Shown here: piece after piece, positions 1-17,425 of the stretch
Layout of the letters: every line of letters begins with the position of its first letter
How positions within the stretch are numbered: the first letter of the stretch is position 1
NCBI RefSeq assembly: GCF_000525995.1
Contig: NZ_AODL01000007.1
Location: 347,252 to 379,251 of the forward strand
Direction of reading: 5' to 3'
DNA: 32,000 nucleotides
Source: Listeria riparia FSL S10-1204
GTDB taxonomy: Bacteria; Bacillota; Bacilli; Lactobacillales; Listeriaceae
The notes under the pieces: model-generated
The model's input: only the letters and a program-made list of their open reading frames with translations
Databases searched by the model: none
What the model was told of the DNA's origin: nothing
Made by a program: the position numbers and the translations under genes

Positions 1-1399
1 TAGTACCGCAATGATTTTTGCTGTAGTATTGCCATCGCTATCTGTTACTGCATACGTAACGTGATAAAGGCCTTCTTTGCTTGTATCTACATCATTGGCT
101 GTGATTTGGATGGCTTTCGTTAGGTCGCCGTCTTCTTTGTCTGTGGCACTTACTTCTGCTAACGGGTCGAATGTACCGCCTTTTTTCAGTGTATGGTCTG
201 TTGCTGTAATTGTTGGGGCATCATTGCTCGTTACTGTTACTGTAATGGTTTTCGTCGTCGTGTTGTTATCACTATCTGTAACGGCATACGTGACGTGATA
301 GGTGCCTTCTTTGCTTGTGTCTACGTCATTGGCTGTAATTTGAATATCTTTTGTTATATCGCCATCTTCTTTGTCTGTTGCGCTCACATCAACTGTTGCA
401 TCGAATGCTCCGCCTTTTTTCAATGTATGGTCTGTTGCTGTAATAATTGGCGCGTCATTACTTGTCACCGTTACTGTAATCGTTTTTGTTGTTTTATTAT
501 TGTCGCTGTCTGTAACGGTATACGTAACATGATAGGTGCCTTCTTTGCTTGTGTCTACATCATTGGCTGTGATTTGGATATCTTTTGTTATGTCACCGTC
601 TTCTAAGTCTGTTGCACTCACATCCGTCAGTGGATTAAAAGTATCCCCTCTTTTTAATGTATGATCTGTTGCTGTAATCGCTGGAGCGTCATTACTTGTC
701 ACTGTTACTGTGACCGTTTTTGTTGTTTTGTTGTTATCACTATCTGTAACGGCATACGTAACATGATAGGTGCCTTCTTTGCTTGTGTCTACATCATTGG
801 CTGTGATTTGGATGTTTTTTGTTAAATTACCATCTTCTTTTATCTGTTGCACTTACGTCGGCTAGCGGATCAAATGTACCACCTTTTTTCAATGTATGGT
901 CTTCGGCTATGATGGTCGGAGCGTCATTACTTGTCACGGTTACTGTTATTGTTTTTGTCGTTTTATTGTTGTCGCTATCTGTGACGGCATAGGTAACATG
1001 ATAAGTGCCTTCTTTACTTGTGTCTACATCGTTGGCTGTGATTTGGATGTTTTTTGTTAAATTACCATCTTCTTTATCTGTTGCACTTACGTCGGCTAGC
1101 GGATCAAATGTGCCGCCTTTTTTCAATGTATGGTCTTCGGCTATGATAGTCGGAGCGTCGTTACTAATTACTGTTACAGTTATACGTTTAGTCACTACAT
1201 TCCCATCACTATCTGTGACGCTGTATGTGACATGGTACACGCCTTCTTTCGTTGTGTCCACATCATTTTCTGTTATTTTTACACTAGTTGTAAGATTGCC
1301 GTCTTCTATATCTGTAGCACTAACTCCAGTTAATGGGTTAAATGTTGCACCTTTTTTAAGTGTTTGATCAGATGCTTCGATGGTTGGTGCATTGTTTGC
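1..1399 (-). repeat. Tandem 234-bp (78-codon) coding repeats, at least 6 copies; the array runs off the left edge.
   Basis: The marker motif (a/g)gtgcc/aaggcc/cacgcc ttctt recurs at 67, 301, 535, 769, 1004 and 1238. Spacing is 234 bp every time except 235 bp across the extra T at 838-841. Confidence 0.95.
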
Positions 1400-2416
1400 G
1401 ATGACACTTAGCGTGACATCATTCGAGTAATTTGTATATTGTTCATCTGTAAAGCCTTTGTCTTGATGTGTGACAGTGGCTTGTGTTGTAATATTATTCG
1501 CTACAGTAGCACCTTTGACGTCAAATGTGACATGTTTTGTTGCATCTTTTTCAATGCTTCCAAGTGGAATAGACAAAATACGTGTGTTGCTATCGTAGGA
1601 ACCTGTTACAGATACGCCATCAACCATTGCCGTCGGTGAATCTAATGTTACTTCTTGTGGGATTGGAATAGTTAATGTTGTATTTTGGGAAGCCATGCCG
1701 CCTTCGTTTTTAGCATCAAAAGCGTAGGTTGCTGTTTTGTCTTTTTTCACGGATGTTTGATTTACTTGTCCAGCTACTGTTATAAAAGACTGCGTTGAAA
1801 AGACGATATTATCTAGCAAATTACCATTTGTAGGGTCCCCACCAACTGCTTCAAATTGGAAGCGTGTCGTTGTTTGACCTGCTGGAATGGTATAAGTTCC
1901 CGAATATGTTTTCCACGCATCCACAGATGTTGTCATGGTATCTATTAATTTCAAATCGCCAGGAGCACCAAATTTAACGGTAGCTGTGTCAGTAGTATGT
2001 CTTCCTCGGTGTTCTACTTGCCATCTCACCGTTGCACCTGGAGTTGTTGGGATGTCTTGATACAGTGCTGAAGCTTCATATGCATTTAATTCTGCATATT
2101 GCTCTCCGTCTGCAGCGTCTCTGTTTTCATTATGATTTTGAATTTCGATTAAGCCATCGGATGCCGTCGTCTTCCAACCTGGAACTTCTGATTGATCAAA
2201 CGTTTCCCATGTTCCATATTTAACTGCTGGCTGTTCAAAACTACCATTTTCCAAACTGATTACTTCGATAGGTGGCTTTGGTACTCCGTGAACGTTCGTT
2301 GTCGCTGCATGTGCAATCGGCTCTTTTAGTACGTTATACGGTAATGATGTGTTTCCAGTGAGAACTACTGATGCTATCATGGTTCCTGCTGCAATTTTAA
2401 CGATGTTTTTATTCAT
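1..2416 (-). CDS. Large secreted repeat surface protein/adhesin. Partial: the 3' end lies beyond the window, and the frame is broken by a 1-nt indel at 838-841.
   Basis: ATG at 2416 is preceded by GGAGGGG. The N-terminus MNKNIVKIAAGTMIASVVLTG...AHAATT is signal-peptide-like. It is followed by a jelly-roll/CBM-like domain (ENGSFEQP...GNLLDNIVFST) and a DUF11-like segment. Then come 78-aa Ig-like (DUF5011-type) repeats with the pattern SNDAPTI..DHTLKKGGTFDP...SATDKEDGNLT...DVDTSKEGTYHVTY.VTDSDNN. The track ORF (827..2416) stops at 827-829 only because GAT AAA GAA GAT GGT of the neighbouring repeat (1066-1080) reads GAT AAA AGA AGA TGG TAA here, with T4 at 838-841 instead of T3. The repeats continue in frame on the minus strand to base 1. 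Confidence 0.85.
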
Positions 2417-2607
2417 TAAATTTACCCCTCCAATTTTCTTAATTTATGTTTCATTGTTAATTTATTAGGAAAAACCGTCTATCGGTGGTATTTCGTCATA
2501 ATATAACAAATAAACTCCTTCTATGTGTATACAGAAAATATAGCCATATCAATGAAGTATCACTAAAATTTCTCGTTATACCTATGAAAAACCGTAGTTT
2601 CTCAAAA

Positions 2608-2898
2608 TCACACGCATGCATTAATCAGCATTATTCCTTTAGAACGAACGTGTTTATTTATTTTAGAAATTAATGCTTGTCGACTAATAACAACGGGTTT
2701 GCTTATCTCTCGTTCTCCATCTATACCGTTGTATTCTCTAGTCACCAAAAAATTAATATGATCCACTTTTCGAATGACGTATTCTTCTCCTTCAAATTCA
2801 CCACATCGAATATACAGTGAAGCCACGAAGTGTAACATTTCTGTGTATGACGCTTGATCTTGTAGCTCTACTTGTAAAAAATGCTCCATGGTGTCCAT
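2608..2898 (-). CDS. Hypothetical 96-aa protein, co-transcribed with the upstream GT2.
   Basis: ATG at 2898 is preceded by AAGGAG at 8-nt spacing, and this SD overlaps the stop of the upstream GT2 gene. I recognise no motif. Confidence 0.55.
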   Translation of the reverse strand: MDTMEHFLQVELQDQASYTEMLHFVASLYIRCGEFEGEEYVIRKVDHINFLVTREYNGIDGEREISKPVVISRQALISKINKHVRSKGIMLINACV

Positions 2899-2910
2899 TT
2901 GTATCGCTCC

Positions 2911-3876: not shown

Positions 3877-3890
3877 TTGACAAACTCCTT

Positions 3891-4451
3891 TTATGAATTA
3901 GATATCTTTTTCATTGCGTACTCATCTAATTTTTCCATATTTAAAATCATCCATGGTTTTGGCTTTACGCGAATAATGCCAGCCTCAATCATTTTTCGTA
4001 ATAATAAGGAGACGTATTCTCTTTTTAGGTTACAGTAATCTGCTAAATCATATTGTGTAAATGCAGGTGCTATTTGTATACCTTTTTCCACATGTGTGCC
4101 AAATTTGTTTGCTAATTGTTTTAAGCACAGGCAAAGTCTCATTGGTGCGCTCCACTTATATTCATCCAGCCGTTCTAACAACTGTCGATTATAAATTTTG
4201 ATGCACGATTCCATACTGATTTGGCTGATGCGCTGTTTCTCCAATTGGACTTCTGTTTTGGCGTAGAAAATAATACCCTCATTCACCAAATTTGTTAGGA
4301 TGAAATCACCTGCCGCTAAATAGCTAATGATGCTCCCCGAATTGCTTCTCATGACTACAATGCCACGTTTAATGATAAAAAAGTTATTACTACTATGAAA
4401 AGCCATATCTTGTTTTTCTGAAAATGTCATTTCCGACCAATCGTGGTACAT
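3891..4451 (-). CDS. Crp/Fnr (PrfA-like) family transcriptional regulator.
   Basis: An N-terminal beta-roll-like region is followed by a C-terminal HTH (YDLADYCNLKREYVSLLLRKMIEAGII). I chose the ATG at 4451 (MYHDW) because GGAGGAGGAAG lies just upstream. The track start at 4469 is a TTG inside that SD. Confidence 0.75.
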   Translation of the reverse strand: MYHDWSEMTFSEKQDMAFHSSNNFFIIKRGIVVMRSNSGSIISYLAAGDFILTNLVNEGIIFYAKTEVQLEKQRISQISMESCIKIYNRQLLERLDEYKWSAPMRLCLCLKQLANKFGTHVEKGIQIAPAFTQYDLADYCNLKREYVSLLLRKMIEAGIIRVKPKPWMILNMEKLDEYAMKKISNS

Positions 4452-4483
4452 CCCATCTTCCTCCTCCAACTATTCCAAGCAGT

Positions 4484-5562
4484 CTACTCTTTTGAAGCGA
4501 AAGACTGGATAATCTGATCTGTTGTATATTTTTCTTTGCTCACCAATTTTCGCACTGCTATTTTTTCATAAAATGCTGCTTCCGTTAATAATCGTGTTAG
4601 CCAGTCTATAATCTGTATCTTTGAAGAACCTATAAAAACGCTTGGGCCATGACTTCCACCCATAGCCTTTACTGAGGTTTCTTGAACGACCAAGACCGGT
4701 GTATGCAATGCTTCGGCAACTTCTAAGCAATCACTACTATCAGTGATAATTAGCCATGCTCGATTCACGAATTGTTGTTTTTCTAATATGTGAAAAGGTT
4801 GCACAAAATAAATCTGTTGTTGTCCTTTCAAAATCTCATTTGCTAGTTCCATAATGGTCGCTGTCAATTTTATCGGAATTACGACAATCACTTCTTTGTG
4901 GATGTCTGTAATTTGTTTAAGTCCTTGAAATATTTTTTTAAGCACTTTTTTTTTTGATCTGTTTTACCTTGGTAGTCTACTAAAATCATCTTTTTGTGCG
5001 CACTTTCTTCAGCAAGGAAAAGGGTGTCATGTCTAGTAACAATCGTTTGTAATGATTCTTCCAAGCCTAAAATCATTTCTTGTTTCGCTAATGACCCTAT
5101 TAAATCTTTACTTGTACTCCCCAAGAAAGCATTTTCGTCTTCTTGGTATATCGCTGGCCCCTTGACTTGGGTGACTGGAATACCATTGTAATAAGAGGAA
5201 AGCGTTGCTGCAAAAGCGATTCGTGTATTACCGCAAACAATTGTCGAAACTATTTTTTCACGCTTGACGATTTCAGTTAAGTCGTTCAATGCCCAACCAG
5301 TAAGCTGATCTAAGTTCTGATGCTCATCTGCGGTAATTGGTAATGTGTAATGGACCTTCACTTGAAATAATGCTAAAATGTCTTGCATCACTTGAGCCGT
5401 CTCCAGTTGCTCGGAGATAACAATGACTGGTATGACATTTTCTATACGTTCTAGTTTCTGAATCACGGGACATATTCGCATCGCTTCTGCAGGTGTATCA
5501 AATACCATCATTATTCTTTTCGTGTGGGAAACTCCATTTGTTTTCTTTAACATTTTTTTCAT
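4484..5562 (-). CDS. Degenerate UDP-N-acetylglucosamine 2-epimerase (WecB/MnaA)-like protein, split at a T10/A10 homopolymer.
   Basis: The two track ORFs (4888..5571 and 4484..4945) together span about 359 aa. Both are collinear with MnaA from memory: IMMVFDTPAEAMRICPV against VFGTRPEAIKMAPL, IVCGNT against VHGDT, and LIITDSSDCLEVAEALHTPVLVV against [22 protein letters not shown]. The frames switch inside the run 4946-4955, and one extra A on the coding strand would fuse them. The ATG at 5562 has GAAGGTG 7 nt upstream. Confidence 0.6.
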
Positions 5563-5579
5563 GATGGTCACCTTCTTTT

Positions 5580-6467
5580 TTAGTTACTTGATATTTGGCG
5601 ATCATTTAGTTTTTGCTCTGGGCGATTGTTGCCGTCTAATTGTTTTGTCAAATCGCTTAGTTGTTGTTTCGACATTGTGATTGGTTTTTCGTATACGAAC
5701 CATGACACGCCTTCTGTTGTTGCTGGTGTTGTCAATGAGCCATCATATTCATATATTTTGCTATCCGCTGTAATAAGTCCAAGTGTACTGATAGCTTGTT
5801 TCATTGCTACTGTTTTACCATTTTCAGAAGATGCAACGACACTCGTCAAATCACCTATTGCTTGATTTTTCTCGCCTTCTTTAACAAAAACGCTGATGAT
5901 TGCCACTTTGTTGTCTGCCGAAACGTGTTTTAGTTGTAATTCAGCTGCGTAATTTTTACCGTCTAGTTGGTGTTCGCTAGGTGTATGAATATTGATTTCT
6001 TTTAGTGTGTAGTCTTTTTTAGCGACTGTAATTTTACTGTCAGCTCTTCCTTTTGCTGGCTGAGCGACCACTTGTACCATCTTATCTTTACGTGTCACTT
6101 TAAACATTGTTGGTTGATATTTATAGCCAATGCTTACTTTTGCTTTGTCTTCTTTAGCATCTTTTGTTTCGATATTGATTGGTGATTGCTTTTTACCTGT
6201 GTCACTAATTTTGTATTCTGGTTTGATAGAACCCCAATGTGTCGGTCCTGTGCTACCTGAATAAGACCAGTCCAGTAAAGCTTTTTCGTCCGTTTTTGCA
6301 GTATCTTTTGTTGTATCCTTTGTTGTGTCTTTTGTTGTCTCCGTTGTTTTTGTATCTTCTTTCTTTTTGTCACTGCTAGCTGTGTCTGTGTTACCACAAG
6401 CTCCTAAAACTAATAAACTACTTGTTGCTACTGCTACTAGTGATACTGCCATACTTTTCTTTACCAT
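5580..6467 (-). CDS. Alpha-carbonic-anhydrase-like lipoprotein, predicted non-catalytic because zinc ligands are substituted.
   Basis: ATG at 6467 lies after GAGG. The lipobox is LLVLGAC, followed by a T/K/D-rich linker (KDTTKDTTKDTAK). The alpha-CA hallmarks are THWG, KKQSPINI, PSEH, YAAEL, GSLTTP, TEGVSW and NNRPEQKLNDR. However, FHFH reads INIH and ELHLVH reads ELQLKH. Confidence 0.8.
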   Translation of the reverse strand: MVKKSMAVSLVAVATSSLLVLGACGNTDTASSDKKKEDTKTTETTKDTTKDTTKDTAKTDEKALLDWSYSGSTGPTHWGSIKPEYKISDTGKKQSPINIETKDAKEDKAKVSIGYKYQPTMFKVTRKDKMVQVVAQPAKGRADSKITVAKKDYTLKEINIHTPSEHQLDGKNYAAELQLKHVSADNKVAIISVFVKEGEKNQAIGDLTSVVASSENGKTVAMKQAISTLGLITADSKIYEYDGSLTTPATTEGVSWFVYEKPITMSKQQLSDLTKQLDGNNRPEQKLNDRQISSN

Positions 6468-6490
6468 AAATAAAAACCTCACTTTTTTTA

Positions 6491-7779
6491 TTACTCGGCG
6501 ACACGTTCTGTTTTCGCCCAAGCTTCTTTTTTTGTTGTTTGTCTCCAAAATGCGAGCCAAATACTCGGAATCGCTAATAAATTATAGATTGGCATGAACA
6601 AACCTGCGCCAATACATTGTAAAAGGGAAATGCCATCCTGATCTTTACGACCTAGTTCATAGTGATAAATGCACCACACCAACCCTGGTCCAAAAATCAA
6701 ACCAACGATAACCAATAAGGCACCCCAGTCTTGCGGTGTATTTGAAAATCCTGCACCCCAATCGACTGATCGGAAAAAGATTAGCATCAAGGCCCATGAA
6801 ATAATCATGATGATACTACCTAACAAGTTAATCCATGGCTGCGCCAAAAAATAATAAATGTCCAGCTTTGAAGCGCTACTCAATGTATCGGATTTTCTTA
6901 TTTCTTGCAGTCGCTTAATAGACTGAATGTTGCCTTGTACCCATCGTGCTCGTTGGCGAATAAATTTTTTGACAGATGTTAGACCTTGTTGGTACACTAC
7001 TGCTTCACCAATATACTTACTTTTCCAACCTTTCAGTAAAATAGATAACCCAAGATCAAAATCTTCTAACAAACATTTCGACCATGGTGTACTGCCTAAT
7101 TCAATTAGTGCGCTTAGTCGTGTAAACTGTCCGTTTCCGCCCAAGCCTACACTTTCTGTATATTCGCGACTATTTTGGATGGCTGCAACGGTAGAATAAA
7201 ATTCAATATCTTGCATCATCGGCAAAATACTTCTGCGATTTGTAATGCGAATCCGTGCTTGTGCTGCACCAACAGCTGTATCTCGAAATATCCGATTTGC
7301 TTCTGTTAGCAAATTATCACTTGGACGTCCGTCGCCATCAATAACAGTAATAATAAGGTTATCCGGATTTCTATTTAAACGTCTTGCTGCTTTTGTTATT
7401 TTTGTATAGGCATAATTTAATGACTCACCTTTTCCTAATTGCGCATTTGGTTTTTTGCGTTCAATCACTCGAACATTAGGAAGTTTCATTTGACGAACAG
7501 TTGCCACTGTACTATCATCCGAATCATCGTCTATGACAATGACCATCTTCTTTTTATAAGATAAGGCTAAAATTGAACGAATTGTCTTTTCAATTACCAC
7601 TTCTTCATTCAAGCAAGGAATTAAAAATACATATTCTAATTCGCTATCGTCTTCTTCACTGATTTTTTTTCTTTTTTTCCTGCAAAAGGTGGGAGTAGTA
7701 AAATTAAGCTCGTATATGAAAAATAAATAAATATGAGAAACACGCTCACTCCTGCCATAATTGCTAATAAAGCATTCAT
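6491..7779 (-). CDS. Processive family-2 glycosyltransferase (polysaccharide-synthase type, QxxRW), with the frame broken in an A7-G-A8 tract.
   Basis: ATG at 7779 follows GGAGG and encodes an N-terminal TM helix (MNALLAIMAGVSVFLIFIYFSYTSLILLL). This frame stops after the poly-A tract (7663-7670 and 7672-7678 on the plus strand). The -1 frame continues ..KKISEEDDSELEYVFLIPCLNEEVV into the track ORF 6491..7612. Motifs present are VIDDDSDD, VIDGDG, LEDFDL (TED-like) and QRARW, plus C-terminal TM helices. The reconstructed protein is about 429 aa. Confidence 0.85.
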
Positions 7780-7811
7780 ATATTTCCTCCTTCAGGTTCT
7801 TTGTGACCGTT

Positions 7812-8427: not shown

Positions 8428-8678
8428 TCGCCTTCCCGTCCTTTCACAGACTGATCTTTATAGAAAGCAACAAAAGCACCATGGTAAGGCAACATTCGAA
8501 TGTAACCTTCACCGCTTAATTTCGTAATCGCCGCACGAATTGGTGTGCGACTCATATTTAATTCATGCGCTAAATCTTGCTGACTAACGAAATCCCCCAT
8601 CTTAAATCGATTCTCTTTAATGCATTTCAAAACATGTGCATATGCGACTTCTTCCAGTCGTGGTCTTTTATCTTTCAT
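8424..8678 (-). CDS. GntR-type winged-HTH protein with the DNA-binding domain only (84 aa).
   Basis: The sequence VSQQDLAHELNMSRTPIRAAITKLSGEGYI matches the GntR N-terminal HTH pattern, and there is no effector domain. Its stop overlaps the sortase ATG (ATGA), which suggests translational coupling. Confidence 0.7.
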   Translation of the reverse strand: MKDKRPRLEEVAYAHVLKCIKENRFKMGDFVSQQDLAHELNMSRTPIRAAITKLSGEGYIRMLPYHGAFVAFYKDQSVKGREGE

Positions 8679-8711
8679 AACATTTATTCACTCCATAAAA
8701 TGAATTCCTTT

Positions 8712-10208
8712 TTATTGTCTTAGTCCGATATCATCTAAATTCATAGATGCTTCCGTCTTTTTCTTACCTTTTCTTGCAAAAAGCCGGTATGCTTGCCAAC
8801 ATCCCCACGCAGCAATGACTGAGTAGCCGATAATTAAAGGCACATGATATCTACCTTGTACTTCTACGAGAAGCCCTGACAAAGTAAATCCGACTTGTAG
8901 CAAGACGAATAAATAAATATCCGCTATCTTTCTTAAATAAAGTGCCAGTACGACAGTCAGGAAGTTAAGCCCTAACAAGATGTACATAAACACATTGCAA
9001 ATCGTTAAAATAAGACCTGAATGGTACCAAATGAATGGTGCATCACTGTAAATATTCCAGTCGTATCCGTAACTCTCGTTGCTATAATTTTTCATTTTAT
9101 TAACAAAATGCTCTCCTAATTTTCCATTCTTCGCCATTTCCTTGTAGCGATCTAAGCCTTGTTGCAACATAGCGCTGTCTGCTTTAGATGTATTTGTTTT
9201 GTTTGCATTGTAAAGTTTCCAAAATGTATCGGAATCTTCTTTGCTCCATTGCCCACCTGACTTTTCGTTTGATCCCACAAGTACGTTATAACCGACAGTA
9301 CTATTGGCAGTTGGAATGTGGTAAACCAATTTATTGATAGTCGATTGACCAGCAAGGAAAACAAGAAATAGTACTACTACAAAGGCATATCTTTTAAGTG
9401 TTTCTTTACGATTCGGTCGAAGTAAAAATGAAGTTATAACAAAAGCAATTAGCAAAACTACTGCCAATGGTCGAATCATATTTAATGCTATCAGCGCAAC
9501 TACTAGTAGTAATGACCAGAAAAAACTCGGTGCTCTTTGTTCCACTTGTTGGTATAAGAAAAGTGCCAAGACAAATAGGAACATGAATAGGGGCTCGGTC
9601 GCTAGTAACGTACTGTACATAAAGTATGCCGGCCATAATGCGAAAATAAGGCTACTGCCTACTGCGACTCCAAGTGGAAACCAGTTTTTCACGACTCGGA
9701 AAAGTAAAAATGTACCCGCTAGCATTAAGACACTATTGAATAACTGACCTGCCAAGTAACTATTTCCAAAGATATTGTAAACAACAGATAATACATTGGA
9801 AAAATTGAGAATGTGTGTAAAGTATGGTGCATAAAATAAAATTCCTTGATCGTACAACGTTTCCCAACTGTTGTTATCCGCGACATAGCTTGCAATAACA
9901 TGGTAGTAATAAAAATCGGAAACAGCATGTGTTGGTATCCAAACAATCCATACGATTCTTGGGATTAAAATCAATGCAGCTAGTGCTACGTAAAAATAAA
10001 CCTTTTTCCATTGATAGAGCCTAATAAAGGCCCAAGTGCATAAAGCCAAGATAAGCAAAATTCCGGCACCAATCGCCAAAAGCATCCAAATTGAGGAGAA
10101 ACTTTTGTCAGACGGTTGCTGTAGTAGAATTGCTGTACTGACTAGAAAAACAATCATAATAAGTGCTGGAATCCATAAGGCAATTCCCGTTAAGCTTTTT
10201 TTAAGCAC
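8712..10208 (-). CDS. Polytopic GT-C-fold glycosyltransferase (PMT_2/ArnT/GT39-like).
   Basis: This is a 498-aa protein with about 12 predicted TM segments. The first external loop carries an acidic motif (HAVSDFYYYH), and there is a large extracytoplasmic loop (TANSTVGYNVLVGSNEKSGGQWSKEDSD...). It starts at GTG after GGAGGAG. The family assignment is by overall pattern only. Confidence 0.65.
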   Translation of the reverse strand: MLKKSLTGIALWIPALIMIVFLVSTAILLQQPSDKSFSSIWMLLAIGAGILLILALCTWAFIRLYQWKKVYFYVALAALILIPRIVWIVWIPTHAVSDFYYYHVIASYVADNNSWETLYDQGILFYAPYFTHILNFSNVLSVVYNIFGNSYLAGQLFNSVLMLAGTFLLFRVVKNWFPLGVAVGSSLIFALWPAYFMYSTLLATEPLFMFLFVLALFLYQQVEQRAPSFFWSLLLVVALIALNMIRPLAVVLLIAFVITSFLLRPNRKETLKRYAFVVVLFLVFLAGQSTINKLVYHIPTANSTVGYNVLVGSNEKSGGQWSKEDSDTFWKLYNANKTNTSKADSAMLQQGLDRYKEMAKNGKLGEHFVNKMKNYSNESYGYDWNIYSDAPFIWYHSGLILTICNVFMYILLGLNFLTVVLALYLRKIADIYLFVLLQVGFTLSGLLVEVQGRYHVPLIIGYSVIAAWGCWQAYRLFARKGKKKTEASMNLDDIGLRQ

Positions 10209-10235
10209 GTTGCTCCTCCTTGATACAATTTATAA

Positions 10236-10282
10236 AAGCTGTGGCACTCGTGATGCCGAATGTGAAGGTCCGGCCACAGCTT
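10236..10282 (-). terminator. Hairpin downstream of the 1301-aa adhesin gene.
   Basis: A perfect 10-bp stem pairs AAGCTGTGGC (10236-10245) with GCCACAGCTT (10273-10282). The loop is 27 nt, and the minus-strand transcript continues TTTTAT. Confidence 0.5.
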
Positions 10283-10356
10283 CTTTTTGATTACTTTGCG
10301 TGTTGTTTATAATGAATATAGCATTTTATAAATCAGCTATATTGGCCTTGATAATA

Positions 10357-13300
10357 TCAGTCGCTCCAAACATGTGTTGTTTGATATTGAAGTATATTTC
10401 CTGTTAAATCGTCAAGAAGTAAATATCTTACTCCTTCATACGTAGCATATACTTTTACCTGCATAGTTGGAGTTGTCCAGATACCAGAACTATCGCTCAC
10501 CATTTCTTGATGATATGTTCCATTTGAAGTACCAATGACTTTAGTAAACTGGAACGTACCGTATTGGTTATACGTATCTACAGAGTATACTACGCCTGCT
10601 GGTACATCAGCTACATGTGGATAAAGATAGAAATCAATTCCACGTACTCCGCTTCCACTATCAGGGTATGCACCGTCCCTACGATCATTTACAAGCTCAA
10701 TATCAACACTTCCTACACGATCAGCGATACTCTTATTAACAGTGACATTGATTGTTTTCGTGATGTTTGATCCGTCTGTTGTTTTCACTGCAATTGTTGT
10801 TGTTCCTGATTTTTTCGCTGTCCAGTTTCCGTTAGCATCTACTGTAATGATGCTTGGGTCTGCTGGTGTGTAGCTCAATGTTTTGTTTGTTGCATTGGAT
10901 GGTGCTACTGTTGCATCGATTTTACCTGTGTCATTTACGTTTGCTGTGATGTTTGATGCTCCTAGTGTAAGATCCGTTGCTAGAACGTCTGTTGCTGTAA
11001 CTGTAAATGTGAATGAACGTACAACATTTCCTGCTGCGTCACGGATTGTTACATTCGTGCTACCAGCTTTGTCGTTATGCACAAGTGCAATTAGGTTTGG
11101 ATCTGATTGGTCTGCTGCTGCAATTGTTGTGTCTGAGAAGGAAACTGTATATCCTTTTGGTTGAACCAATGTGCCAGCACTGTTGTAGAATTGAAGATCT
11201 ACATGTGGTTTGTTAAATTCATTCAAGTATGTGTTTGGAATTTCAAGGATGCCGTTGTTATTGACTGGACGTGAAACGCCATCTTTATTGAAGTTCCATT
11301 TTACACTAGTGATAGCATTCGGATCTGTAACAGTAACATTGACAGTTTTCGTGATGTTAGAGCCATCTGTTGTTTTCACTGCAATTGTTGTTGTTCCTGC
11401 TTTTTTCGCTGTCCAGTTTCCGTTAGCGTCTACTGTAATGATGCTTGAATCTGCTGGTGTGTAGCTCAATGTTTTGTTTGTCGCATTCGATGGTGAGACA
11501 GTTGCATCGATTTTACCTGTATCATTGACGTTTGCTGTAATGTTAGATGCTCCTAGCGTAAGATCAGTTGCTGGAACGTTTGTCGGTGCTGTAACTGTGA
11601 ACGTGAATGAACGTACAACATTTCCTGCTGCATCACGGATTGTTACATTCGTGCTACCAGCTTTCTCATTGTGAACAAGTGCAATTAGATTTGGGTTAGA
11701 GAAGTCTGCTGCTGCAATTGTTGGATCTGAGAATGATACTGTGTATCCTGTTGGTTTTACAAGTACGTTTGAACTATTGTAGAACTGAAGATCTACATGT
11801 GGTGTGTTAAATTCATTCAAGTATGTGTTTGGAATTTCAAGGATGCCGTTGTTATTAACTGGACGTGAAATGCCATCTTTGTTGTAATTCCATTTAACAT
11901 CTGTTACTGCTGTTGGATCAGCGGTAATTGTGATTGTAAATGTGCGTACTACTTTGCCTGATGCGTCTTTTACAGTTACTAATGAGCTTCCTGTTTTCTC
12001 TGTATGTGTAAATGCGATGTGTGTTCCATTAGCTTTTACAGCAGAGAATAGGTCTGGATTAGATAGCGTTGTTGTATACGAGCTAGGGTCTACAATTTTA
12101 TCTTCGCTATTGTAGAATGCAACGTCTACGTTGTTATTGTTGTAGCCATCTTTGTATGTGTTCGGTACAGAAATCTCGCCACCTTCAGCTAGATTAGTAT
12201 CTGGTGTAAAGCCTGTGTGATAAATCCATTTTGCATTAGCTACTGCTGTTGGATCAGCTTGTGCTACAAGTGATGCGTTCATATCTGTACGTGTTTGTTC
12301 TGCATCGATATTGATGTACCCAGATACGCCATCATCACCGAATGCTGCATTCGCTAAGTTGTCATATCCTGCTGGTGGTGTTACTTTCACATAGTAAGTT
12401 CCTGGTGTGATTGTTTCGAATTTGTACAAGCCGTTAGCATCTGTTGTAGTTGTTTCGACAACAGCACCTGTGTTGCTGTAAAGTGTTACTGTTGCTCCAG
12501 CAATACCAGATTCGCCTGCTTCTTGCGTACCGTTTTTGTTCAAGTCATTGAAGACTGTAGAACGGATTTGGCCTGTTTTTTGTGCTAGTGTTAGACGTAG
12601 ATTTGAGATATTGCTTGTGCCGTCAGCTTGCAAGTAGTAACTGTTTCCGTCGCTACCAAAACCTGCTGAAGATTCGAATGTGTAGCCTTCTGGAATGGAA
12701 GCTTTCACATAGTAGTTACCTTCTGAAATTCCGTCAAAGCTGAAGTTACCTTGGCTGTTTGTTGCAACAGTTTTCACAAGTGTACCGTCTACGTTGTAAA
12801 GTGATACGTTTTCGCTGACACCTTGACCACCTGGTGTGTTAATAACGCCAGAAATCGTTGTGTTGGCTTGTTTTTTCAGTGCAATCATGTAGTTAGATGA
12901 TGTGTTTTGACCATCAAGTTGGATGTAGTTACTGTTACCGTCACTACCGAAACCATTACTGCTTGCAAATTCATAGTTGTTTGGAATAACTACTTTTGTA
13001 TAGTAATTTCCTGCTGCTAATCCTGTGAAGTTGTAGTTACCGCTTGCGTCTGTTTGTTTTGCGTCAACTAGGTTTCCTTGTACGTCATGTAGTTCGACAC
13101 GGATGTTTGCAAGTCCGTTACCTGTTGTTGCGTCTTTTACTGTTCCGCTAACTGCAGAGTTGTCTTTTACTTGTTTTTTCAGTGCAATCGTGTAGTTAGA
13201 TGATGTGTTATCGCCGTTTAATTGGATGTAGTTACTGTTTCCATCACTACCAAAACCATTACTGCTTACAAAGTCATAGTCGCTTGGAATCACTACTTTT

Positions 13301-14262
13301 GTATAGTAGTCTCCTGCTGCTAGTCCTGTAAAGTTGTAGCGACCACTTGCATCTGTTTGCTGTGCGTCAATTAAATTGCCTTGTACGTCATGTAGTTCGA
13401 CACGTGTGTTCGCAAGTCCGTTGCCTGTTGCTGCATCTGTTACAGTTCCGCTAACTGCAGAGTTGTTTAGTGTGCTTAGGCCTAAATTCAACTCGTTATG
13501 AAGCGTTTGTTCGCTAGCTACAGAGAAGTAACCTGTTGTTCCATCAGCGCCATAGTATGTGCTTGATTGGTATTTGTAGTTGGCAGGGATGTCTGCTTTT
13601 GCGTAGTATTTACCAGGTTTTACAGCCGTGAAGCTATATGCGCCTGAGCTGTCAGTTGTTGCGTCGGCTACTTTAGTTCCTGATTCGTTGTATAAAGCAA
13701 TATGAACGCCGCTGATTCCAGCTTCTCCGCTGTCTTTTTGACCATTTTTATTAGTATCGTTATATACAAAGCTTTGAATCGCGCCTTGTTGTGGATAGAA
13801 ACCGAAATGGAAGCCTGTGATTGTATTGCCATTCGCAATCGTGAAGTAGCTTGAGTTACCGTCTGCACCGTTGATACCTTGTGATGTATAAAGTTTCTCA
13901 TCGGATGGCAATGTTGACATATCTACATGTAAATAGTATGTGCCGTCTGGAACGTTTGAAAAAGTATATCTGCCGTCTGTTCCTGTTGTAGATGTGCTTA
14001 CTAGTGTTCCTTGGTCGTTGTAAAGCTCTACTTTAATGCCGGCTACACCTGTTGTTTCGTTGTTATCTTGTACGGAATTTCCGTTTAAATCTTCAAACAT
14101 AACATCGCTAATAGTACCTTGACCAGATGCTTTTAATTGTTTGATTGTGTTTTCTGCTGCAGATACAGTCATGTAGGGTTGGATAATTGGTGTTAGGCTT
14201 CCTAATACCAATACGCCTGTGATAGCGCCAAGTCCCCATTTCTTCATTGTCTTCTTATACAT
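10357..14262 (-). CDS. 1301-aa secreted adhesin with SdrD-B/Cna-B-like repeats and Big_2 domains; no recognisable cell-wall anchor.
   Basis: ATG at 14262 follows AGGAGGAA, and the signal peptide is MYKKTMKKWGLGAITGVLVLGSL...VSAAEN. About 7 modules follow the pattern V(F/Y)xDxNxNGxQDxxExGxxGVxVxLYNxxG...TDxxGxYxFxxVxPGxYY. Two tandem copies of a roughly 197-aa unit each end in a Big_2-like segment (ATDLTLGASNITANVNDTGKIDATV.PSNATNKTLSYTPAD.SIITVDANGNWTAKK). The C-terminus ...QYQTTHVWSD has no LPXTG, hydrophobic tail, or GW, LysM or WxL pattern. Confidence 0.9.
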   Translation of the reverse strand: MYKKTMKKWGLGAITGVLVLGSLTPIIQPYMTVSAAENTIKQLKASGQGTISDVMFEDLNGNSVQDNNETTGVAGIKVELYNDQGTLVSTSTTGTDGRYTFSNVPDGTYYLHVDMSTLPSDEKLYTSQGINGADGNSSYFTIANGNTITGFHFGFYPQQGAIQSFVYNDTNKNGQKDSGEAGISGVHIALYNESGTKVADATTDSSGAYSFTAVKPGKYYAKADIPANYKYQSSTYYGADGTTGYFSVASEQTLHNELNLGLSTLNNSAVSGTVTDAATGNGLANTRVELHDVQGNLIDAQQTDASGRYNFTGLAAGDYYTKVVIPSDYDFVSSNGFGSDGNSNYIQLNGDNTSSNYTIALKKQVKDNSAVSGTVKDATTGNGLANIRVELHDVQGNLVDAKQTDASGNYNFTGLAAGNYYTKVVIPNNYEFASSNGFGSDGNSNYIQLDGQNTSSNYMIALKKQANTTISGVINTPGGQGVSENVSLYNVDGTLVKTVATNSQGNFSFDGISEGNYYVKASIPEGYTFESSAGFGSDGNSYYLQADGTSNISNLRLTLAQKTGQIRSTVFNDLNKNGTQEAGESGIAGATVTLYSNTGAVVETTTTDANGLYKFETITPGTYYVKVTPPAGYDNLANAAFGDDGVSGYINIDAEQTRTDMNASLVAQADPTAVANAKWIYHTGFTPDTNLAEGGEISVPNTYKDGYNNNNVDVAFYNSEDKIVDPSSYTTTLSNPDLFSAVKANGTHIAFTHTEKTGSSLVTVKDASGKVVRTFTITITADPTAVTDVKWNYNKDGISRPVNNNGILEIPNTYLNEFNTPHVDLQFYNSSNVLVKPTGYTVSFSDPTIAAADFSNPNLIALVHNEKAGSTNVTIRDAAGNVVRSFTFTVTAPTNVPATDLTLGASNITANVNDTGKIDATVSPSNATNKTLSYTPADSSIITVDANGNWTAKKAGTTTIAVKTTDGSNITKTVNVTVTDPNAITSVKWNFNKDGVSRPVNNNGILEIPNTYLNEFNKPHVDLQFYNSAGTLVQPKGYTVSFSDTTIAAADQSDPNLIALVHNDKAGSTNVTIRDAAGNVVRSFTFTVTATDVLATDLTLGASNITANVNDTGKIDATVAPSNATNKTLSYTPADPSIITVDANGNWTAKKSGTTTIAVKTTDGSNITKTINVTVNKSIADRVGSVDIELVNDRRDGAYPDSGSGVRGIDFYLYPHVADVPAGVVYSVDTYNQYGTFQFTKVIGTSNGTYHQEMVSDSSGIWTTPTMQVKVYATYEGVRYLLLDDLTGNILQYQTTHVWSD
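10745..11926 (-). repeat. Two tandem 591-bp (197-codon) near-identical coding repeats inside the adhesin gene.
   Basis: The string gttttcactgcaattgttgttgttcctg occurs at 10781 and 11372, a 591-bp offset. The protein copies differ at only a few positions. A more diverged half-copy follows at about 11927-12260. Confidence 0.9.
12846..13451 (-). repeat. Two tandem 303-bp (101-codon) coding repeats inside the adhesin gene.
   Basis: The string ccgctaactgcagagttg occurs at 13145 and 13448. The peptide copies are AVSGTV.DA.TGNGLAN.RVELHDVQGNL.DA.QTDASG.YNFTGLAAG.YYTKVVIP.... Confidence 0.9.
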
Positions 14263-14319
14263 GTTAATAATTCCTCCTGATTCTTTGAAACACTTATGAT
14301 GTTTTGTACAAATTATGTC

Positions 14320-14502
14320 TTAGGATACTTGATTGTGTTGCTTCCGTTTATTCTTCGCAAATAAAAGAACGGCTGTTACTGCTGCTATTCCAATGCCTAT
14401 GGTTGCTGCCATGAGCGGATACCCTTGGAGCATTGCCGCACCAATAATAGGACCACCTCCAGTCATTGGGACCAATGGATTTAAATTACCACCTTGACTC
14501 AT
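14320..14502 (-). CDS. 60-aa Gly-rich membrane mini-protein resembling a stand-alone cell-wall sorting signal.
   Basis: ATG at 14502 follows AAGGAGG. The sequence is MSQGGNLNPLVPMTGGGPIIGAAMLQGYPLMAATIGIGIAAVTAVLLFAKNKRKQHNQVS. It consists of a VPMTG motif, a hydrophobic segment and a basic tail. It lies 57 nt upstream of the adhesin start with no intervening terminator. Confidence 0.6.
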   Translation of the reverse strand: MSQGGNLNPLVPMTGGGPIIGAAMLQGYPLMAATIGIGIAAVTAVLLFAKNKRKQHNQVS

Positions 14503-14639
14503 TGTTTAGCCTCCTTACTACAGTTTGAGTTTTTTAACCTAGAACTTCCGGACTTAGCTGGAATCAGGTCGAGAATTGATTGTCATTTCTTAGCCTCCTA
14601 GTTAATTGTGTTTTAGATTGATTTTTCAATAAATATATT

Positions 14640-15318
14640 TTAGTATGGTATGCTTATGTCAGCTTTATTTAGAATGAATTGGTTTGTGTCTGCTTCGAAA
14701 ATCCCGTTGTTTTCGAAATCTTTGCAGAGGTATGTCATGTGTTGTCTTGTCATGCCTAGATAATTCGAAATTATCTTTTTTGTAAAAATTTTCGGTAATA
14801 TTATTTGATATTGATTTTCTTCACCGTATTGTTGTCCTAGATGTGTGAGGGTGAGGAGAAGTTGTTTTTTTTGTTTCTTCGGTTTGGAGAAGTTGTTTTT
14901 GTAGGAGATTAGCGTTGACTAGTTTCATATATTGGTAGAGGTAGAACGCGCCTTCTTGAGAATACATTAGCTTGCTCATGACTTCTTCTTTGGAAAAGCG
15001 CCAAGTCACAATGTCGGTTAGAGCGATGACACTTGTAAATGATGGTTCGTTTCCTAGTATTTCGTTGAAACCAATAATGTCGTTTTCGCCGATGAAGCTA
15101 TTAATATGCTCATTTTTCCATACGCCACAAATACCAGATTGGATGAAATAGATGTAATCGTGTATTTCGTTTTCAATCACTATATAATCTTTTTTTCGGA
15201 ACACTTTTCTTTCTTTATCTATAGGAAAAGATGTTTTGTCTGATAAAACGTTTAGTAATTCTGTGCTGCTAAATTCTTCTTCCATAACATCCTTATCGAA
15301 TAATTCCATGTAGCTCAT
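14640..15318 (-). CDS. Crp/Fnr (PrfA-like) family transcriptional regulator, with the frame broken at a T8/A8 run.
   Basis: The track ORF 14821..15318 carries the cNMP-binding-like beta-roll (YFIQSGICGVWKNE...). Removing one A from the run at 14865-14872 extends it. The extension reads ..EETKKQLLLTLTHLGQQYGEENQYQIILPKIFTKKIISNYLGMTRQHMTYLCKDFENNGIFEAD...SIPY*, with the stop at 14640-14642. This is a typical Crp-family HTH, and the total is about 225 aa. Confidence 0.8.
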
Positions 15319-15705: not shown

Positions 15706-15713
15706 ATATAATT

Positions 15714-15754: not shown

Positions 15755-15768
15755 CTTTCTCGTATTAC

Positions 15769-17411: not shown

Positions 17412-17425
17412 TTTTAAAATTAGAA

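Follow-up and report, generated by a model that had tools for sequence, protein, structure and literature searches.

What a regulator, a sortase, three glycosyltransferases and two large repeat proteins do together, and whether they form one system at all, is the question raised by a locus of Listeria riparia FSL S10-1204. The locus covers positions 1-15318 of the 32,000-nucleotide stretch analysed here (the window) and is filled by 14 co-directional genes on the minus strand. ORF lists, Pfam and NCBIfam agree with the gene order and identities previously assigned by a sequence-only reading. It is best read as a cassette dedicated to the assembly of surface glycans or glycoproteins, with a sortase that processes a mini-protein. 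Its genes, in the direction of reading, are:

14640..15318, minus: Crp/Fnr-family regulator, cNMP-binding domain plus HTH (Pfam cNMP_binding; the HTH part lies in another frame)
14554..14586, minus: uORF of 10 codons, MTINSRPDSS and stop, with a strong Shine-Dalgarno sequence
14320..14502, minus: mini-protein, 60 aa, a bare cell-wall sorting signal (translation)
10357..14262, minus: giant repeat protein, 1301 aa, SdrD_B/Big_2, secreted (Pfam)
8712..10208, minus: GT-C fold glycosyltransferase, PMT_2/ArnT-like, ~12 TM (Pfam PMT_2)
8424..8678, minus: GntR-family HTH-only protein, 84 aa (Pfam GntR)
7812..8427, minus: sortase, 204 aa when corrected, closest to class F (Pfam, NCBIfam)
6491..7779, minus: processive GT2 synthase, 428 aa when corrected, membrane-integrated (Pfam, NCBIfam, motifs)
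5580..6467, minus: alpha-carbonic-anhydrase (CA)-like lipoprotein, lipobox LVLGAC (Pfam Carb_anhydrase)
4484..5562, minus: UDP-GlcNAc 2-epimerase-like protein (Epimerase_2), 358 aa when corrected (Pfam)
3891..4451, minus: second Crp/Fnr-family regulator, HTH_Crp_2, 186 aa (Pfam; gene call on contig L002)
2911..3876, minus: GtrB/ArnC/PgfS-like GT2, 321 aa (Pfam, NCBIfam)
2608..2898, minus: conserved cytoplasmic ORF, 96 aa, no family assigned (ORF list)
1..2416, minus: second adhesin, DUF642 and DUF11, then Bact_surface_Ig-like repeats, extending beyond the window (Pfam)

The GntR stop codon (TGA) overlaps the sortase ATG, with positions 8424-8427 common to both ORFs. Smaller elements also recur in related cassettes. 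The first Crp/Fnr regulator has an intact 238-aa orthologue (94% identical) on contig L015, and the uORF keeps its PDSS-stop ending on L015 and L005, the stop sitting within a small conserved consensus hairpin that lacks covariation support. The second Crp/Fnr regulator is found in the L015, L016 and L005 cassettes, as are copies of the 96-aa ORF (76-78% identical, annotated 'hypothetical protein'), which has no Pfam or NCBIfam match.

Integrity and recurrence of the cassette

Five of the genes are interrupted by one or two extra A in a run of A: the first Crp regulator (extra A in the A8 run, 14865-14872), the sortase (extra A at 7963), the GT2 synthase (two extra A, about 7670-7672), the epimerase-like gene (two extra A, 4946-4947), and the second adhesin (extra A at about 847). 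Five broken genes in one locus would suit a decaying, pseudogenised remnant, but every break amounts to 1-2 bases within an A-run, and intact paralogues occur in many genomes. In addition, three of the five genes are whole on the 99.6%-identical public contigs L001 and L002 (sortase, 204 aa; GT2, 428 aa; epimerase-like protein, 358 aa), and outside the locus a core GntR gene (26610-27324) shows the same type of break. The broken frames therefore look like errors of this assembly rather than pseudogenes, so the earlier frame-corrected translations were right, and we regard decay as hardly credible.

The sequence-only reading also contrasted 30-37% GC in the locus with 42-57% in neighbouring core genes and suggested an acquired AT-rich island. 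Overall the contrast is smaller than that (38.6% for 1-15318 vs. 40.1% for the remaining window), and the flank also contains low-GC stretches. It is clearer at third codon positions, where GC3 is about 0.25-0.38 (~0.31) in locus genes vs. 0.40-0.48 (~0.44) in core genes. The case for a recently acquired island is weak, given this small GC gap and the fact that the type strain of L. booriae, a species that this genome resembles, carries the locus at the corresponding chromosomal position (flank 89% identical).

At least five divergent paralogous copies of the cassette are present at different chromosomal sites in L. booriae, and relatives are found in L. ilorinensis, Carnobacterium divergens, a Bacillus cereus megaplasmid, and a metagenome contig. 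All share a class-F-like sortase, a HAS/BcsA-like GT2, and a sorting-signal-only protein of 55-70 aa. Across the paralogues (GT-C identity 44%-93%), the order mini-protein, giant protein, GT-C enzyme, GntR, sortase, GT2, CA-like and GtrB-like gene is kept, and Carnobacterium has the same parts in permuted order. On the B. cereus megaplasmid and the metagenome contig, the core comprises the mini-protein, a GntR-like protein, the sortase, and the GT2. The GT-C enzyme and the lipoprotein pseudo-carbonic-anhydrase are extras of Listeria and Carnobacterium; Listeria further has a PgfS-like GT2, and some of its copies also a pseudo-epimerase. Every Listeria cassette has the GntR gene beside the sortase gene, as do Bacillus and metagenome contig L079; Carnobacterium lacks it. 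Carnobacterium has no GtrB-like gene within 10 kb, and none of the GT-C, CA-like and GtrB-like genes lies close to the core in Bacillus, so this pair of glycosylation enzymes may be an addition to the core.

This recurrence of the same set in L. booriae, L. ilorinensis and Carnobacterium, on Bacillus plasmids and on metagenome contigs, bears out the proposal that the genes are functionally linked, and the gene-neighbourhood co-occurrence check across genera indicates that their juxtaposition is not accidental. A search of the literature and curated families found no description of this system, and no characterised operon matches the locus gene for gene, as had been supposed. Conserved in several copies and genera yet unstudied, the cassette could represent a novel means of attaching sugars or proteins to the wall of Gram-positive cells. 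On the view that Listeria sensu lato has a conserved, self-contained cassette for surface assembly in multiple copies, of which this locus is one, taken jointly with the mechanism proposed below, our belief and doubt are about evenly balanced.

Glycosyltransferases and pseudo-enzymes

The 428-aa GT2 carries the motifs D, DGD (DxD), ED and QRARW, matches the TED/QxxRW pattern of BcsA, and has one N-terminal and 3-4 C-terminal TM segments. Its best NCBIfam model is 'XrtP-associated glycosyltransferase' (NF053846; 325 bits, cut-off 520), and it scores 92 bits against the PgaC/IcaA model (cut-off 422). An AF2 model of the 91%-identical GT2 P0012 (pLDDT 91) retrieves hyaluronan synthases, BcsA and chitin synthases as best folds, so that by its predicted fold the enzyme resembles the processive hyaluronan, cellulose and chitin synthases, as its QxxRW motif had already suggested.

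Homologues of the GT-C enzyme are named ArnT family or GT39, and its AF2 model (pLDDT 85) matches STT3, AglB, PglB, ArnT and Pmt. GT-C enzymes carry a catalytic acid just past the third TM helix, and an invariant Asp98 lies just past the third predicted TM helix here. The 321-aa GtrB-like GT2, with a DAD motif and two predicted C-terminal TM segments, scores 284 bits against PgfS (cut-off 500) and 182 bits against ArnC, and is probably a polyprenyl-phosphate sugar synthase. The GT-C enzyme is apparently active. The proposed logic of a GtrB-like synthase paired with a GT-C enzyme thus stands, the former being closest to PgfS and the latter matching oligosaccharyltransferase-, ArnT- and PMT-type folds in its model.

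Two further homologues had been called catalytically dead, which alignments support. The CA-like lipoprotein has an alpha-carbonic-anhydrase fold with Asn/His/Gln in place of the zinc ligands (His94 to Asn, His119 to Gln in PDB alignments); all 7 cassette copies checked, that of Carnobacterium among them, have these substitutions, and the Cys pair is missing. The epimerase-like protein lacks the HGDT, HVEAGLR, PFPEE and AHRREN motifs; three Listeria copies have lost these motifs for catalysis and UDP binding, which are intact in the GT2-adjacent epimerases of Actinoplanes and Lachnospiraceae. It is also only 49% identical to its L015 copy, compared with 74%-93% for its neighbours. Judged by these residues, both proteins are conserved pseudo-enzymes.

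The mini-protein, the sortase and the giant protein

The mini-protein begins with MSQGGNLNP-LVPMTG-GGP and continues with a TM segment, within which a GYP motif lies, followed by a KNKRK tail. Those of the other cassettes likewise combine [LV]PxTG, a TM segment and a basic tail, with only 9-13 residues ahead of the motif, no passenger domain, and no signal peptide. The protein is annotated 'hypothetical protein' and has no Pfam or NCBIfam match; homologues occur in Carnobacterium, Bacillus and metagenomes, and no cassette sequenced across that end lacks the gene. Its N-terminal 18 residues are essentially invariant across Listeria copies, with synonymous sites saturated and silent variation in nearly every codon, a pattern that marks strong purifying selection. 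The sortase is anchored by an N-terminal TM segment; its His115/Cys180/Arg194 triad is intact and invariant across copies, and the enzyme is apparently active. It scores 102 bits against the NCBIfam class F model, below the cut-off of 166, while its L. booriae and B. cereus homologues bear the NCBI name 'class F sortase'. The mini-protein is its probable substrate. We consider this the key point that the sequence-only reading missed: the candidate substrate found in every cassette covering that end is the mini-protein, not an adhesin.

The giant protein comprises six SdrD_B/CarboxypepD_reg units and Big_2 units behind a signal peptide (Pfam), and its gene holds a 303-bp tandem repeat. Alignments of the N- and C-termini showed a signal peptide in all giants compared and an LPXTG-TM tail in none of those from ten cassette copies. 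The earlier description of 'Ser/Thr-rich adhesins' applies loosely to its composition (21% Ser+Thr), but not to its architecture: it is built of folded repeats without a Ser/Thr-rich disordered region, and the sole low-complexity Thr-rich linker of the locus follows the lipobox of the CA-like lipoprotein. The second adhesin carries 234-bp tandem repeats (Bact_surface_Ig-like), and its orthologues terminate in LP[TK]TGD-TM-RRKK. Where present, this LPXTG adhesin could be a, or the, sortase substrate.

These canonical anchors, and the fact that every enzyme falls within a known superfamily, would fit an ordinary juxtaposition of known modules, namely a Pgf/Gtr-type pair that glycosylates teichoic acids or proteins, a PNAG-like EPS synthase, and LPXTG or secreted adhesins, in which the sortase anchors the LPXTG adhesin and the mini-ORF is irrelevant. 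However, several cassettes without an LPXTG adhesin still keep the sortase and the mini-protein, the latter under the selection described above. The curated equivalog cut-offs for PgfS, PgaC/IcaA and class F sortase are all missed, the PNAG partners (deacetylase, IcaC/PgaA) are absent, and the two conserved pseudo-enzymes are left unexplained. We consider such a juxtaposition very unlikely.

In the mechanism that we propose instead, the mini-protein would insert N-out, C-in, and the dedicated sortase would cut it after Thr14 (Thr14|Gly15), so that the N-peptide, short and strictly conserved, is joined to peptidoglycan (lipid II) or another amine. The wall product would be a SQGGNLNPLVPMT-muropeptide or other adduct. 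The GT2 synthase would polymerise and export a HexNAc-type polysaccharide, while the PgfS-like GT2 would load sugar onto undecaprenyl phosphate and the GT-C enzyme would move it, outside the membrane, to Ser/Thr of cassette-encoded proteins, with the mini-peptide, the Thr-rich linker of the pseudo-CA lipoprotein and the giant protein as candidate acceptors. The wall-linked peptide handle, probably glycosylated, and the polymer may then retain or organise the anchor-less giant at the surface, under regulation by the GntR, Crp and uORF elements. Several observations run against this mechanism: the missing signal peptide of the mini-protein and the GYP motif in its TM segment, the lack of a Ser/Thr-rich disordered region in the giant, the glycosylation genes missing from Carnobacterium and Bacillus as described above, the sub-threshold class F score of the sortase, and the LPXTG adhesin as an alternative substrate where present.

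The TM segment of the mini-protein invites another interpretation. Its G-x4-G-Y-P motif is conserved across genera, which is unusual for sorting signals; a sorting function alone would not call for GYP, which may point to a specific partner in the membrane. The mini-protein might thus be mainly a small membrane subunit of the GT2 synthase, like IcaD for IcaA or PgaD for PgaC; any sortase cleavage would be a regulatory or maturation step, the GGG-TM remnant the active part, and no peptide would be wall-anchored. The Bacillus triad of mini-protein, sortase and GT2 without GT-C or CA-like genes is consistent with this, as are two single-TM mini-ORFs without LPXTG directly upstream of a homologous GT2 in Lachnospiraceae, and the membrane remnant of a cleaved sorting signal is sensed in S. 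gordonii (PMC11326707). Yet the strongest conservation lies in the extracellular N-peptide and [LV]PxTG, not in the TM segment, and the gene nearly always adjoins the SdrD-B gene rather than the GT2. IcaD and PgaD have two TM segments and are not known to carry such a motif. We regard a subunit role as unlikely, if worth keeping in view.

The adjacency of mini-protein and SdrD-B genes, seen in 12 of 13 contexts from Listeria, Carnobacterium and metagenomes, and the consistent lack of an anchor in the giants raise the further possibility that the mini-protein is a sorting signal supplied in trans. The giant would capture the invariant N-peptide, non-covalently or by an isopeptide- or sortase-made bond to Lys, and the sortase would link the complex to peptidoglycan via the mini-protein Thr. 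Isopeptide chemistry is well known from the fold class that includes SdrD_B/SpaA-type domains. Against this, neither an incomplete domain nor a pilin-type Lys motif was found, the N-peptide with its two prolines looks like a poor beta-strand, and on the Bacillus plasmid the mini-protein, sortase and GT2 occur with no SdrD-B gene close by. We know of no precedent for a trans-supplied sorting signal, and consider this arrangement distinctly improbable.

Comparison with known systems

The nearest curated model of the 428-aa GT2, the XrtP-associated glycosyltransferase NF053846, is by name tied to a C-terminal protein-sorting enzyme, but the score lies under the 520-bit cut-off and no exosortase is present here; a literature search on XrtP found nothing. 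Synthase-dependent EPS systems (HAS, BcsA, PgaC/IcaA) resemble the cassette in the motifs and predicted fold of this GT2 and in its accompaniment by a small single-TM protein. They differ in that the locus has no deacetylase, porin, BcsB or c-di-GMP module, and that the partners here are a sortase, a pseudo-CA and a pseudo-epimerase.

With sortase-dependent display, the locus shares the sortase fold with its His-Cys-Arg triad and the tripartite mini-protein of motif, hydrophobic segment and basic tail. In contrast to such systems, the putative substrate has neither signal peptide nor passenger, and the adjacent giant has no sorting signal. GspA of Actinomyces oris, a glycosylated, sortase-anchored protein (PMC6381275), provides a precedent, and the GspA-LcpA-SrtA system is conceptually similar in that extracellular glycosylation of a peptide carrier precedes its anchoring by sortase. 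In A. oris, however, an LCP phosphotransferase performs the glycosylation and the carrier is an LPXTG protein secreted in the normal way, and the locus has no LCP gene.

The Pgf cluster of Streptococcus mutans (PgfS, PgfE, PgfM1/M2; adhesins Cnm/CnaB/CbpA) encodes its own adhesin substrates and glycosylates Ser/Thr-rich regions outside the membrane. It lacks a dedicated sortase, a mini-protein, a synthase-type GT2 and a CA-like protein, and the GT-C enzyme of the cassette is PMT_2/ArnT-like rather than YfhO-type, its epimerase homologue a dead 2-epimerase rather than a 4-epimerase. Still, among curated models the 321-aa GT2 matches PgfS best, albeit under the equivalog cut-off, and both systems combine a GT-A lipid-sugar synthase, a GT-C enzyme acting outside the membrane, an epimerase-family gene, and clustered adhesin genes.

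Gene content, integrity, and setting of the locus

The locus spans window positions 1-15318, and the gene order put forward in the sequence-only reading, uninterrupted and on the minus strand throughout from 15318 down to 1, was matched exactly by ORF listing, Pfam, and NCBIfam searches.

Genes of the locus in order from 15318 down to 1, with the source of each assignment
Gene 1, minus strand: Crp/Fnr regulator (Pfam, ORF listing)
Gene 2, minus strand: 10-codon uORF (ORF listing)
Gene 3, minus strand: 60-aa mini-protein (ORF listing)
Gene 4, minus strand: 1301-aa SdrD_B/Big_2 repeat protein, the giant (Pfam)
Gene 5, minus strand: PMT_2-type GT-C (Pfam)
Gene 6, minus strand: 84-aa GntR HTH protein (Pfam)
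Gene 7, minus strand: sortase (Pfam Sortase)
Gene 8, minus strand: QxxRW GT2 (Pfam/NCBIfam)
Gene 9, minus strand: alpha-CA-like lipoprotein (Pfam)
Gene 10, minus strand: Epimerase_2-like protein (Pfam)
Gene 11, minus strand: second Crp regulator (Pfam)
Gene 12, minus strand: GtrB-like GT2 (Pfam/NCBIfam)
Gene 13, minus strand: 96-aa ORF (ORF listing)
Gene 14, minus strand: DUF642/Ig-repeat adhesin, continuing past the window edge (Pfam)

No family was assigned to the 96-aa ORF by Pfam or NCBIfam. Five genes (sortase, 428-aa GT2, epimerase-like gene, first regulator, and second adhesin) are split between frames in the window. In two public Logan contigs with 99.6% identity to the window, the sortase (204 aa), the GT2 (428 aa), and the epimerase-like gene (358 aa) are all intact, and each indel between these contigs and the window is an altered A-run length. 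The breaks in the regulator and the adhesin are likewise extra A's, with an orthologue and a neighboring repeat unit as references, and the core GntR gene at 26610-27324 shows the same kind of break relative to a 98.7%-identical contig. All frame breaks (847, 4946-4947, 7670-7672, 7963, 14865-14872, and 26957) are extra A's in homopolymer runs, which are typical of assembly or basecalling error; they look like artefacts, and gene calls across the assembly need care. As the indels are changes in A-run length that also hit a core gene, all locus genes are treated here as intact, and a pseudogene reading was rejected.

The locus had been described as AT-rich (30-37% GC vs. 42-57% in neighboring core genes), which overstated the difference: GC content is 38.6% in 1-15318 and 40.1% in the remaining window. 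A contrast does exist at third codon positions, with a GC3 of 0.25-0.38 in locus genes vs. 0.40-0.48 in core genes. The nearest proteins are those of Listeria booriae (93% identity for the GT-C), and window positions 11932-18504 are 89% identical to a contig of the L. booriae type strain. The type strain carries the locus at the same site, with its distal two-thirds (2608-10284) only 76% identical, and the identity breakpoint at about 11932 falls within the giant gene. This pattern argues for mosaic exchange among variants of the locus instead of recent insertion, and suggests recombination inside the repeat protein gene. Given this synteny and the similar GC content, the proposal of a recently acquired accessory island was rejected as stated.

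Two features of the flanks deserve mention. Adjoining the locus, a bacterial nitric-oxide synthase oxygenase gene (16213-17469; Pfam NO_synthase, E 2.5e-165) is present in this Listeria sensu lato genome. Further away, ~4.3 kb of ~34% GC (27325-31664) are missing in the 98.7%-identical public contig, which fuses 27324 to about 31665. This segment contains three small ORFs and a 629-aa SF2 helicase/restriction-like ORF (27619-29508), which has only weak PADLOC matches (PbeA, type IV methyl-directed restriction enzymes). The segment may represent a small insertion of defence or mobile type.

Recurrence of the gene set in Listeria, Carnobacterium, and Bacillus

The four GT-C homologues compared (82, 60, 54, and 44% identity) are all found in L. 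booriae genomes, at differing chromosomal positions and with the same gene set, hereafter the cassette, around each. Constant in these four neighborhoods are a Crp- or Mga-type regulator, an ORF of ~60 aa, a giant SdrD_B protein, the GT-C, the GntR HTH protein, a ~204-aa sortase, the 428-aa GT2, the CA-like protein, and the GtrB-like GT2; optional are the epimerase-like gene, the second Crp regulator, the 96-aa ORF, and the DUF642 adhesin. In the type strain, at least three copies occur, and a fourth begins immediately downstream of one of them. A second mini-protein gene (L015:20334-20510) lies about 500 bp past the LPXTG adhesin of the type-strain cassette on contig L015; tandem cassettes can therefore occur, and the window may run on into another copy at its left edge. 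That single genomes hold several divergent, mosaic copies suggests that a surface structure has diversified in environmental Listeria.

The gene-neighborhood comparison proposed in the sequence-only reading also found co-occurrence beyond L. booriae, in the form of partial sets. L. ilorinensis encodes the sortase, the GT2, an SdrD-like protein, and the mini-protein. In Carnobacterium divergens, the GT-C, sortase, GT2, CA-like protein, mini-protein, and two SdrD_B proteins occur in a different order. Two Bacillus sequences, a contig of Bacillus sp. and a B. cereus plasmid of 448 kb, encode the mini-protein, a GntR-like protein of 85 aa, a sortase named "class F sortase", and the GT2 within a polysaccharide-gene region; a 548-aa neighbor in Bacillus lacks TM segments and was rejected as a GT-C. 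Three further mini-protein genes of the Bacillus type came from a motif scan of metagenomes; all lie beside an SdrD-like gene, and one also adjoins GntR-like, sortase, and GT2 genes. A profile search of genome contigs with the sortase alignment is unusable as a census, as its narrow peptide patterns missed Carnobacterium and Bacillus; it recovered only L. booriae, L. ilorinensis, unrelated class F sortases of Agromyces, and many proteobacterial class GN sortases.

The two enzyme clades also occur apart. GT2 homologues are found without a sortase in Actinoplanes, Lachnospiraceae, and Enterococcus, and class F-like sortases lack the GT2 beside them in Agromyces and a Virgibacillus Tad-like cluster. 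The core is therefore best defined as the mini-protein, the sortase clade, and the GT2 clade, usually together with an anchorless SdrD_B protein. In Enterococcus sp. DIV0242_7C1 (L075:10001-13173), the GT2 homologue is accompanied by a 183-aa uncharacterised protein and a collagen-binding LPXTG adhesin whose stalk is long and rich in Ser/Thr, a further pairing of this clade with an adhesin, without a sortase. The related class F sortase on Virgibacillus halodenitrificans plasmid NZ_CP033050 (L078; 34% identity) lies in a Tad/Flp-pilus-like cluster (CpaB, ATPase, TadB-like), a different and likewise uncharacterised class F setting in Bacillota. For the cassette genes themselves, parts list, integrity, and co-inheritance are established by these comparisons.

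The mini-protein, the cassette sortase, and the anchorless giant

In translation, the mini-protein consists of MSQGGNLNPLVPMTGGGP, a hydrophobic segment containing GYP, and a basic tail. It has all elements of an LPXTG-type sorting signal, namely the motif (LVPMTG, LLPFTG, or LVPATG), a TM segment at about residues 30-48, and a KNKRK-type tail. The signal peptide and passenger of a canonical sortase substrate are missing: just 9-13 residues precede the motif and there is no hydrophobic N-terminal segment. Across eight Listeria copies, residues 1-18 are almost invariant and nearly all codons have several synonymous variants, and thus selection acts on the peptide and the similarity is not mere DNA conservation. 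The versions of Carnobacterium (MSSPSSSVLLPFTGGG...GGYP...) and Bacillus (MSSNLGINPLVPATGFGP...DGYP...) retain [LV]PxTG at 9-13 residues from the start and the basic tail, with a fixed spacing of 16 residues from the motif Thr through the Pro of GYP. A search of 1.84 billion protein representatives returned five clear homologues, four of them full-length. All named members of the family are annotated as "hypothetical protein", and neither Pfam nor NCBIfam has a family for it.

Ahead of the mini-protein gene, the uORF (14554-14586, minus strand) has the same ...PDSS-stop ending in the window as in L015 and L005, two contigs with other Listeria copies, while its N-terminal part varies. A small hairpin within 14503-14600 spans the last uORF codons and the stop and is followed by an A-run; covariation in the three sequences gave no support for it. 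The uORF and hairpin may form a leader-peptide control element. Consensus scans for promoters and terminators did not outperform shuffles (63 vs. 48 and 16 vs. 12, respectively), and an Rfam scan yielded no match.

The sortase matches Pfam Sortase, and H115, C180 (TLISCTG), and R194 are invariant in seven cassette sortases. The corrected 204-aa protein scores 102.2 bits with the class F model NF033748, below the cut-off of 166 bits, with class F still the top sortase class; the L. booriae and B. cereus homologues are named "class F sortase" by NCBI. No PDB match was obtained with phmmer. No LPXTG-type sequence other than the mini-protein is shared by all cassettes whose sequence reaches that end, the DUF642 adhesin (orthologues of which end in LP[TK]TGD-TM-RRKK) being absent from several. 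For this reason, we infer that the cassette sortase has the mini-protein as its cognate substrate.

An N-terminal signal peptide is present in all ten giants examined, their C-termini vary, and none has a sorting signal; the absence of an anchor is therefore a conserved property and not a truncation. A sortase-assembled pilus locus was rejected because the giants lack an LPXTG-TM tail; the class C sortase model gives 29.6 bits only. The near-universal adjacency of the mini-protein and giant genes speaks for one of two main rival explanations, in which the anchorless giant receives its sorting signal in trans, from the mini-protein. Alternatively, this passenger-less peptide without a signal peptide may be glycosylated or be the attachment point of a synthase-made polysaccharide, and then be transpeptidated by the dedicated sortase onto peptidoglycan. 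That the cassette embodies an undescribed wall-anchoring principle of either form, peptide handle for a glycan or sorting signal in trans, is a possibility we regard as rather unlikely. If true, the handle form would represent a glycan anchored through a sortase, a minimal bacterial "proteoglycan".

Predicted glycan synthesis, pseudo-enzymes, and relation to known systems

The D, DxD, (T)ED, and QxxRW motifs of the 428-aa GT2 are invariant in 57 homologues, the protein matches BcsA across the catalytic core (ED and QxxRW region), and the nearest folds to its confident AF2 model (pLDDT 91) are hyaluronan synthases, BcsA, and chitin synthases (TM-score 0.6-0.68). It thus has the features of membrane GT2 synthases of the HAS/BcsA/Chs type, and based on motifs, BcsA match, and modelled fold we conclude that it is a processive synthase-translocase. 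Among curated families, the XrtP-associated glycosyltransferase NF053846 fits it best, with 324.9 bits against a cut-off of 520; ten other homologues score 276-333 bits, all under the cut-off, and the locus contains no exosortase. The PgaC/IcaA PNAG synthase model TIGR03937 (cut-off 422) gives 91.6 bits, and Pfam detected no deacetylase, IcaC, or PgaA domains among the locus proteins.

In Actinoplanes friuliensis (L014) and Lachnospiraceae (L076), members of the same GT2 clade lie beside a catalytically intact UDP-GlcNAc 2-epimerase. The Actinoplanes module adds a DUF2334 gene; that of Lachnospiraceae adds an acyltransferase and two non-LPXTG single-TM mini-ORFs upstream of the GT2. This pairing looks like the ancestral synthase module, from which the pseudo-epimerase of Listeria is probably derived, and it hints at ManNAc or GlcNAc chemistry. 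The Lachnospiraceae mini-ORFs, along with the conserved GYP motif in the TM segment of the mini-protein, favor the other main rival explanation, in which the mini-protein acts as a subunit of the synthase and its cleavage is regulatory.

The sequence-only reading had also regarded two enzyme homologues as apparently catalytically dead, which residue comparisons bear out. The CA-like lipoprotein aligns well with bacterial alpha-CAs, at E about 1e-39. It does not have the full set of three zinc-binding His of an active enzyme: the positions of His94/His96/His119 (CA II numbering) hold Asn/His/Gln in all seven cassette copies, including that of Carnobacterium (vs. His, His, His in the active bacterial CAs 6eki and 4xz5), and the conserved Cys pair is missing in all seven copies checked. 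Downstream of the lipobox, the Listeria copies have a Thr-rich linker that could plausibly be O-glycosylated, with streptococcal lipoproteins as the analogy. In three Listeria copies of the epimerase-like protein, HGDT is changed to CG[NS]T, HVEAGLR to Q[VA].., PFPEE to AF[LF]G, and AHRREN to DY[QH]GK; the GT2-adjacent epimerases of Actinoplanes and Lachnospiraceae retain all four motifs. The protein scores 117.8 bits with the UDP-GlcNAc 2-epimerase model TIGR00236 (cut-off 210) and diverges faster than its neighbors (49% vs. 74-93% identity). Because the catalytic residues are lost, the NCBI labels in the L015 and L005 cassettes, "carbonic anhydrase (family protein)" and "UDP-N-acetylglucosamine 2-epimerase (non-hydrolyzing)", are probably over-annotations. 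The locus thus offers two clean cases of conserved pseudo-enzymes still labelled active in public records, and in either form of the anchoring principle, if true, both would be non-catalytic assembly factors repurposed from enzymes.

The top match of the 321-aa GT2, which has two predicted C-terminal TM segments, is the PgfS equivalog NF047588 at 283.7 bits (cut-off 500), followed by ArnC at 182 bits. The GT-C matches Pfam PMT_2 only and has neither an NCBIfam family nor a PDB match with phmmer. An invariant Asp98 directly follows its third predicted TM helix, and its AF2 model (pLDDT 85) matches STT3, AglB, PglB, ArnT, and Pmt, in line with a predicted multi-TM GT-C fold whose first extracytoplasmic loop bears an acidic residue.

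In the favored mechanism, the sortase would cut the N-out mini-protein at T|G and move the N-peptide SQGGNLNPLVPMT to the wall or another amine, the synthase would export a HexNAc-type polymer, and the PgfS-like GT2 and the GT-C would decorate extracytoplasmic Ser/Thr. Together, sortase, polymer, and glycosylation would retain or organise the anchorless giant.

Sortases are known for anchoring proteins with a signal peptide and a passenger domain of their own, LCP enzymes are known for fixing polysaccharides to Gram-positive walls, and the biology of class F sortases is poorly known. In the cassettes, a dedicated sortase is always paired with a synthase-type glycosyltransferase and a bare sorting-signal peptide. 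If this peptide links a glycan or the anchorless adhesin to peptidoglycan, it would represent an additional anchoring route, the first defined function for class F sortases in Bacillota, and a very small natural sortase tag. The curated families, literature, and annotation searched contain no description of the cassette or the mini-protein, and, in keeping with the sequence-only reading, no characterised operon linking these modules.

The closest characterised logic to the pair of 321-aa GT2 and GT-C is the Pgf cluster of S. mutans, in which Ser/Thr-rich stretches of surface proteins receive glycans outside the membrane through PgfS and the GT-C PgfM1, and which also encodes adhesin substrates. 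The cassette does not belong to the Pgf system, as it differs in GT-C subtype and epimerase: PgfM1 is of the YfhO type and PgfE of the GalE type, whereas the cassette encodes a PMT_2 GT-C and an Epimerase_2 homologue without catalytic motifs. All cassette components fall in known superfamilies, and the known kinds of system concerned are sortase display, Pgf-like glycosylation, and synthase-dependent EPS.
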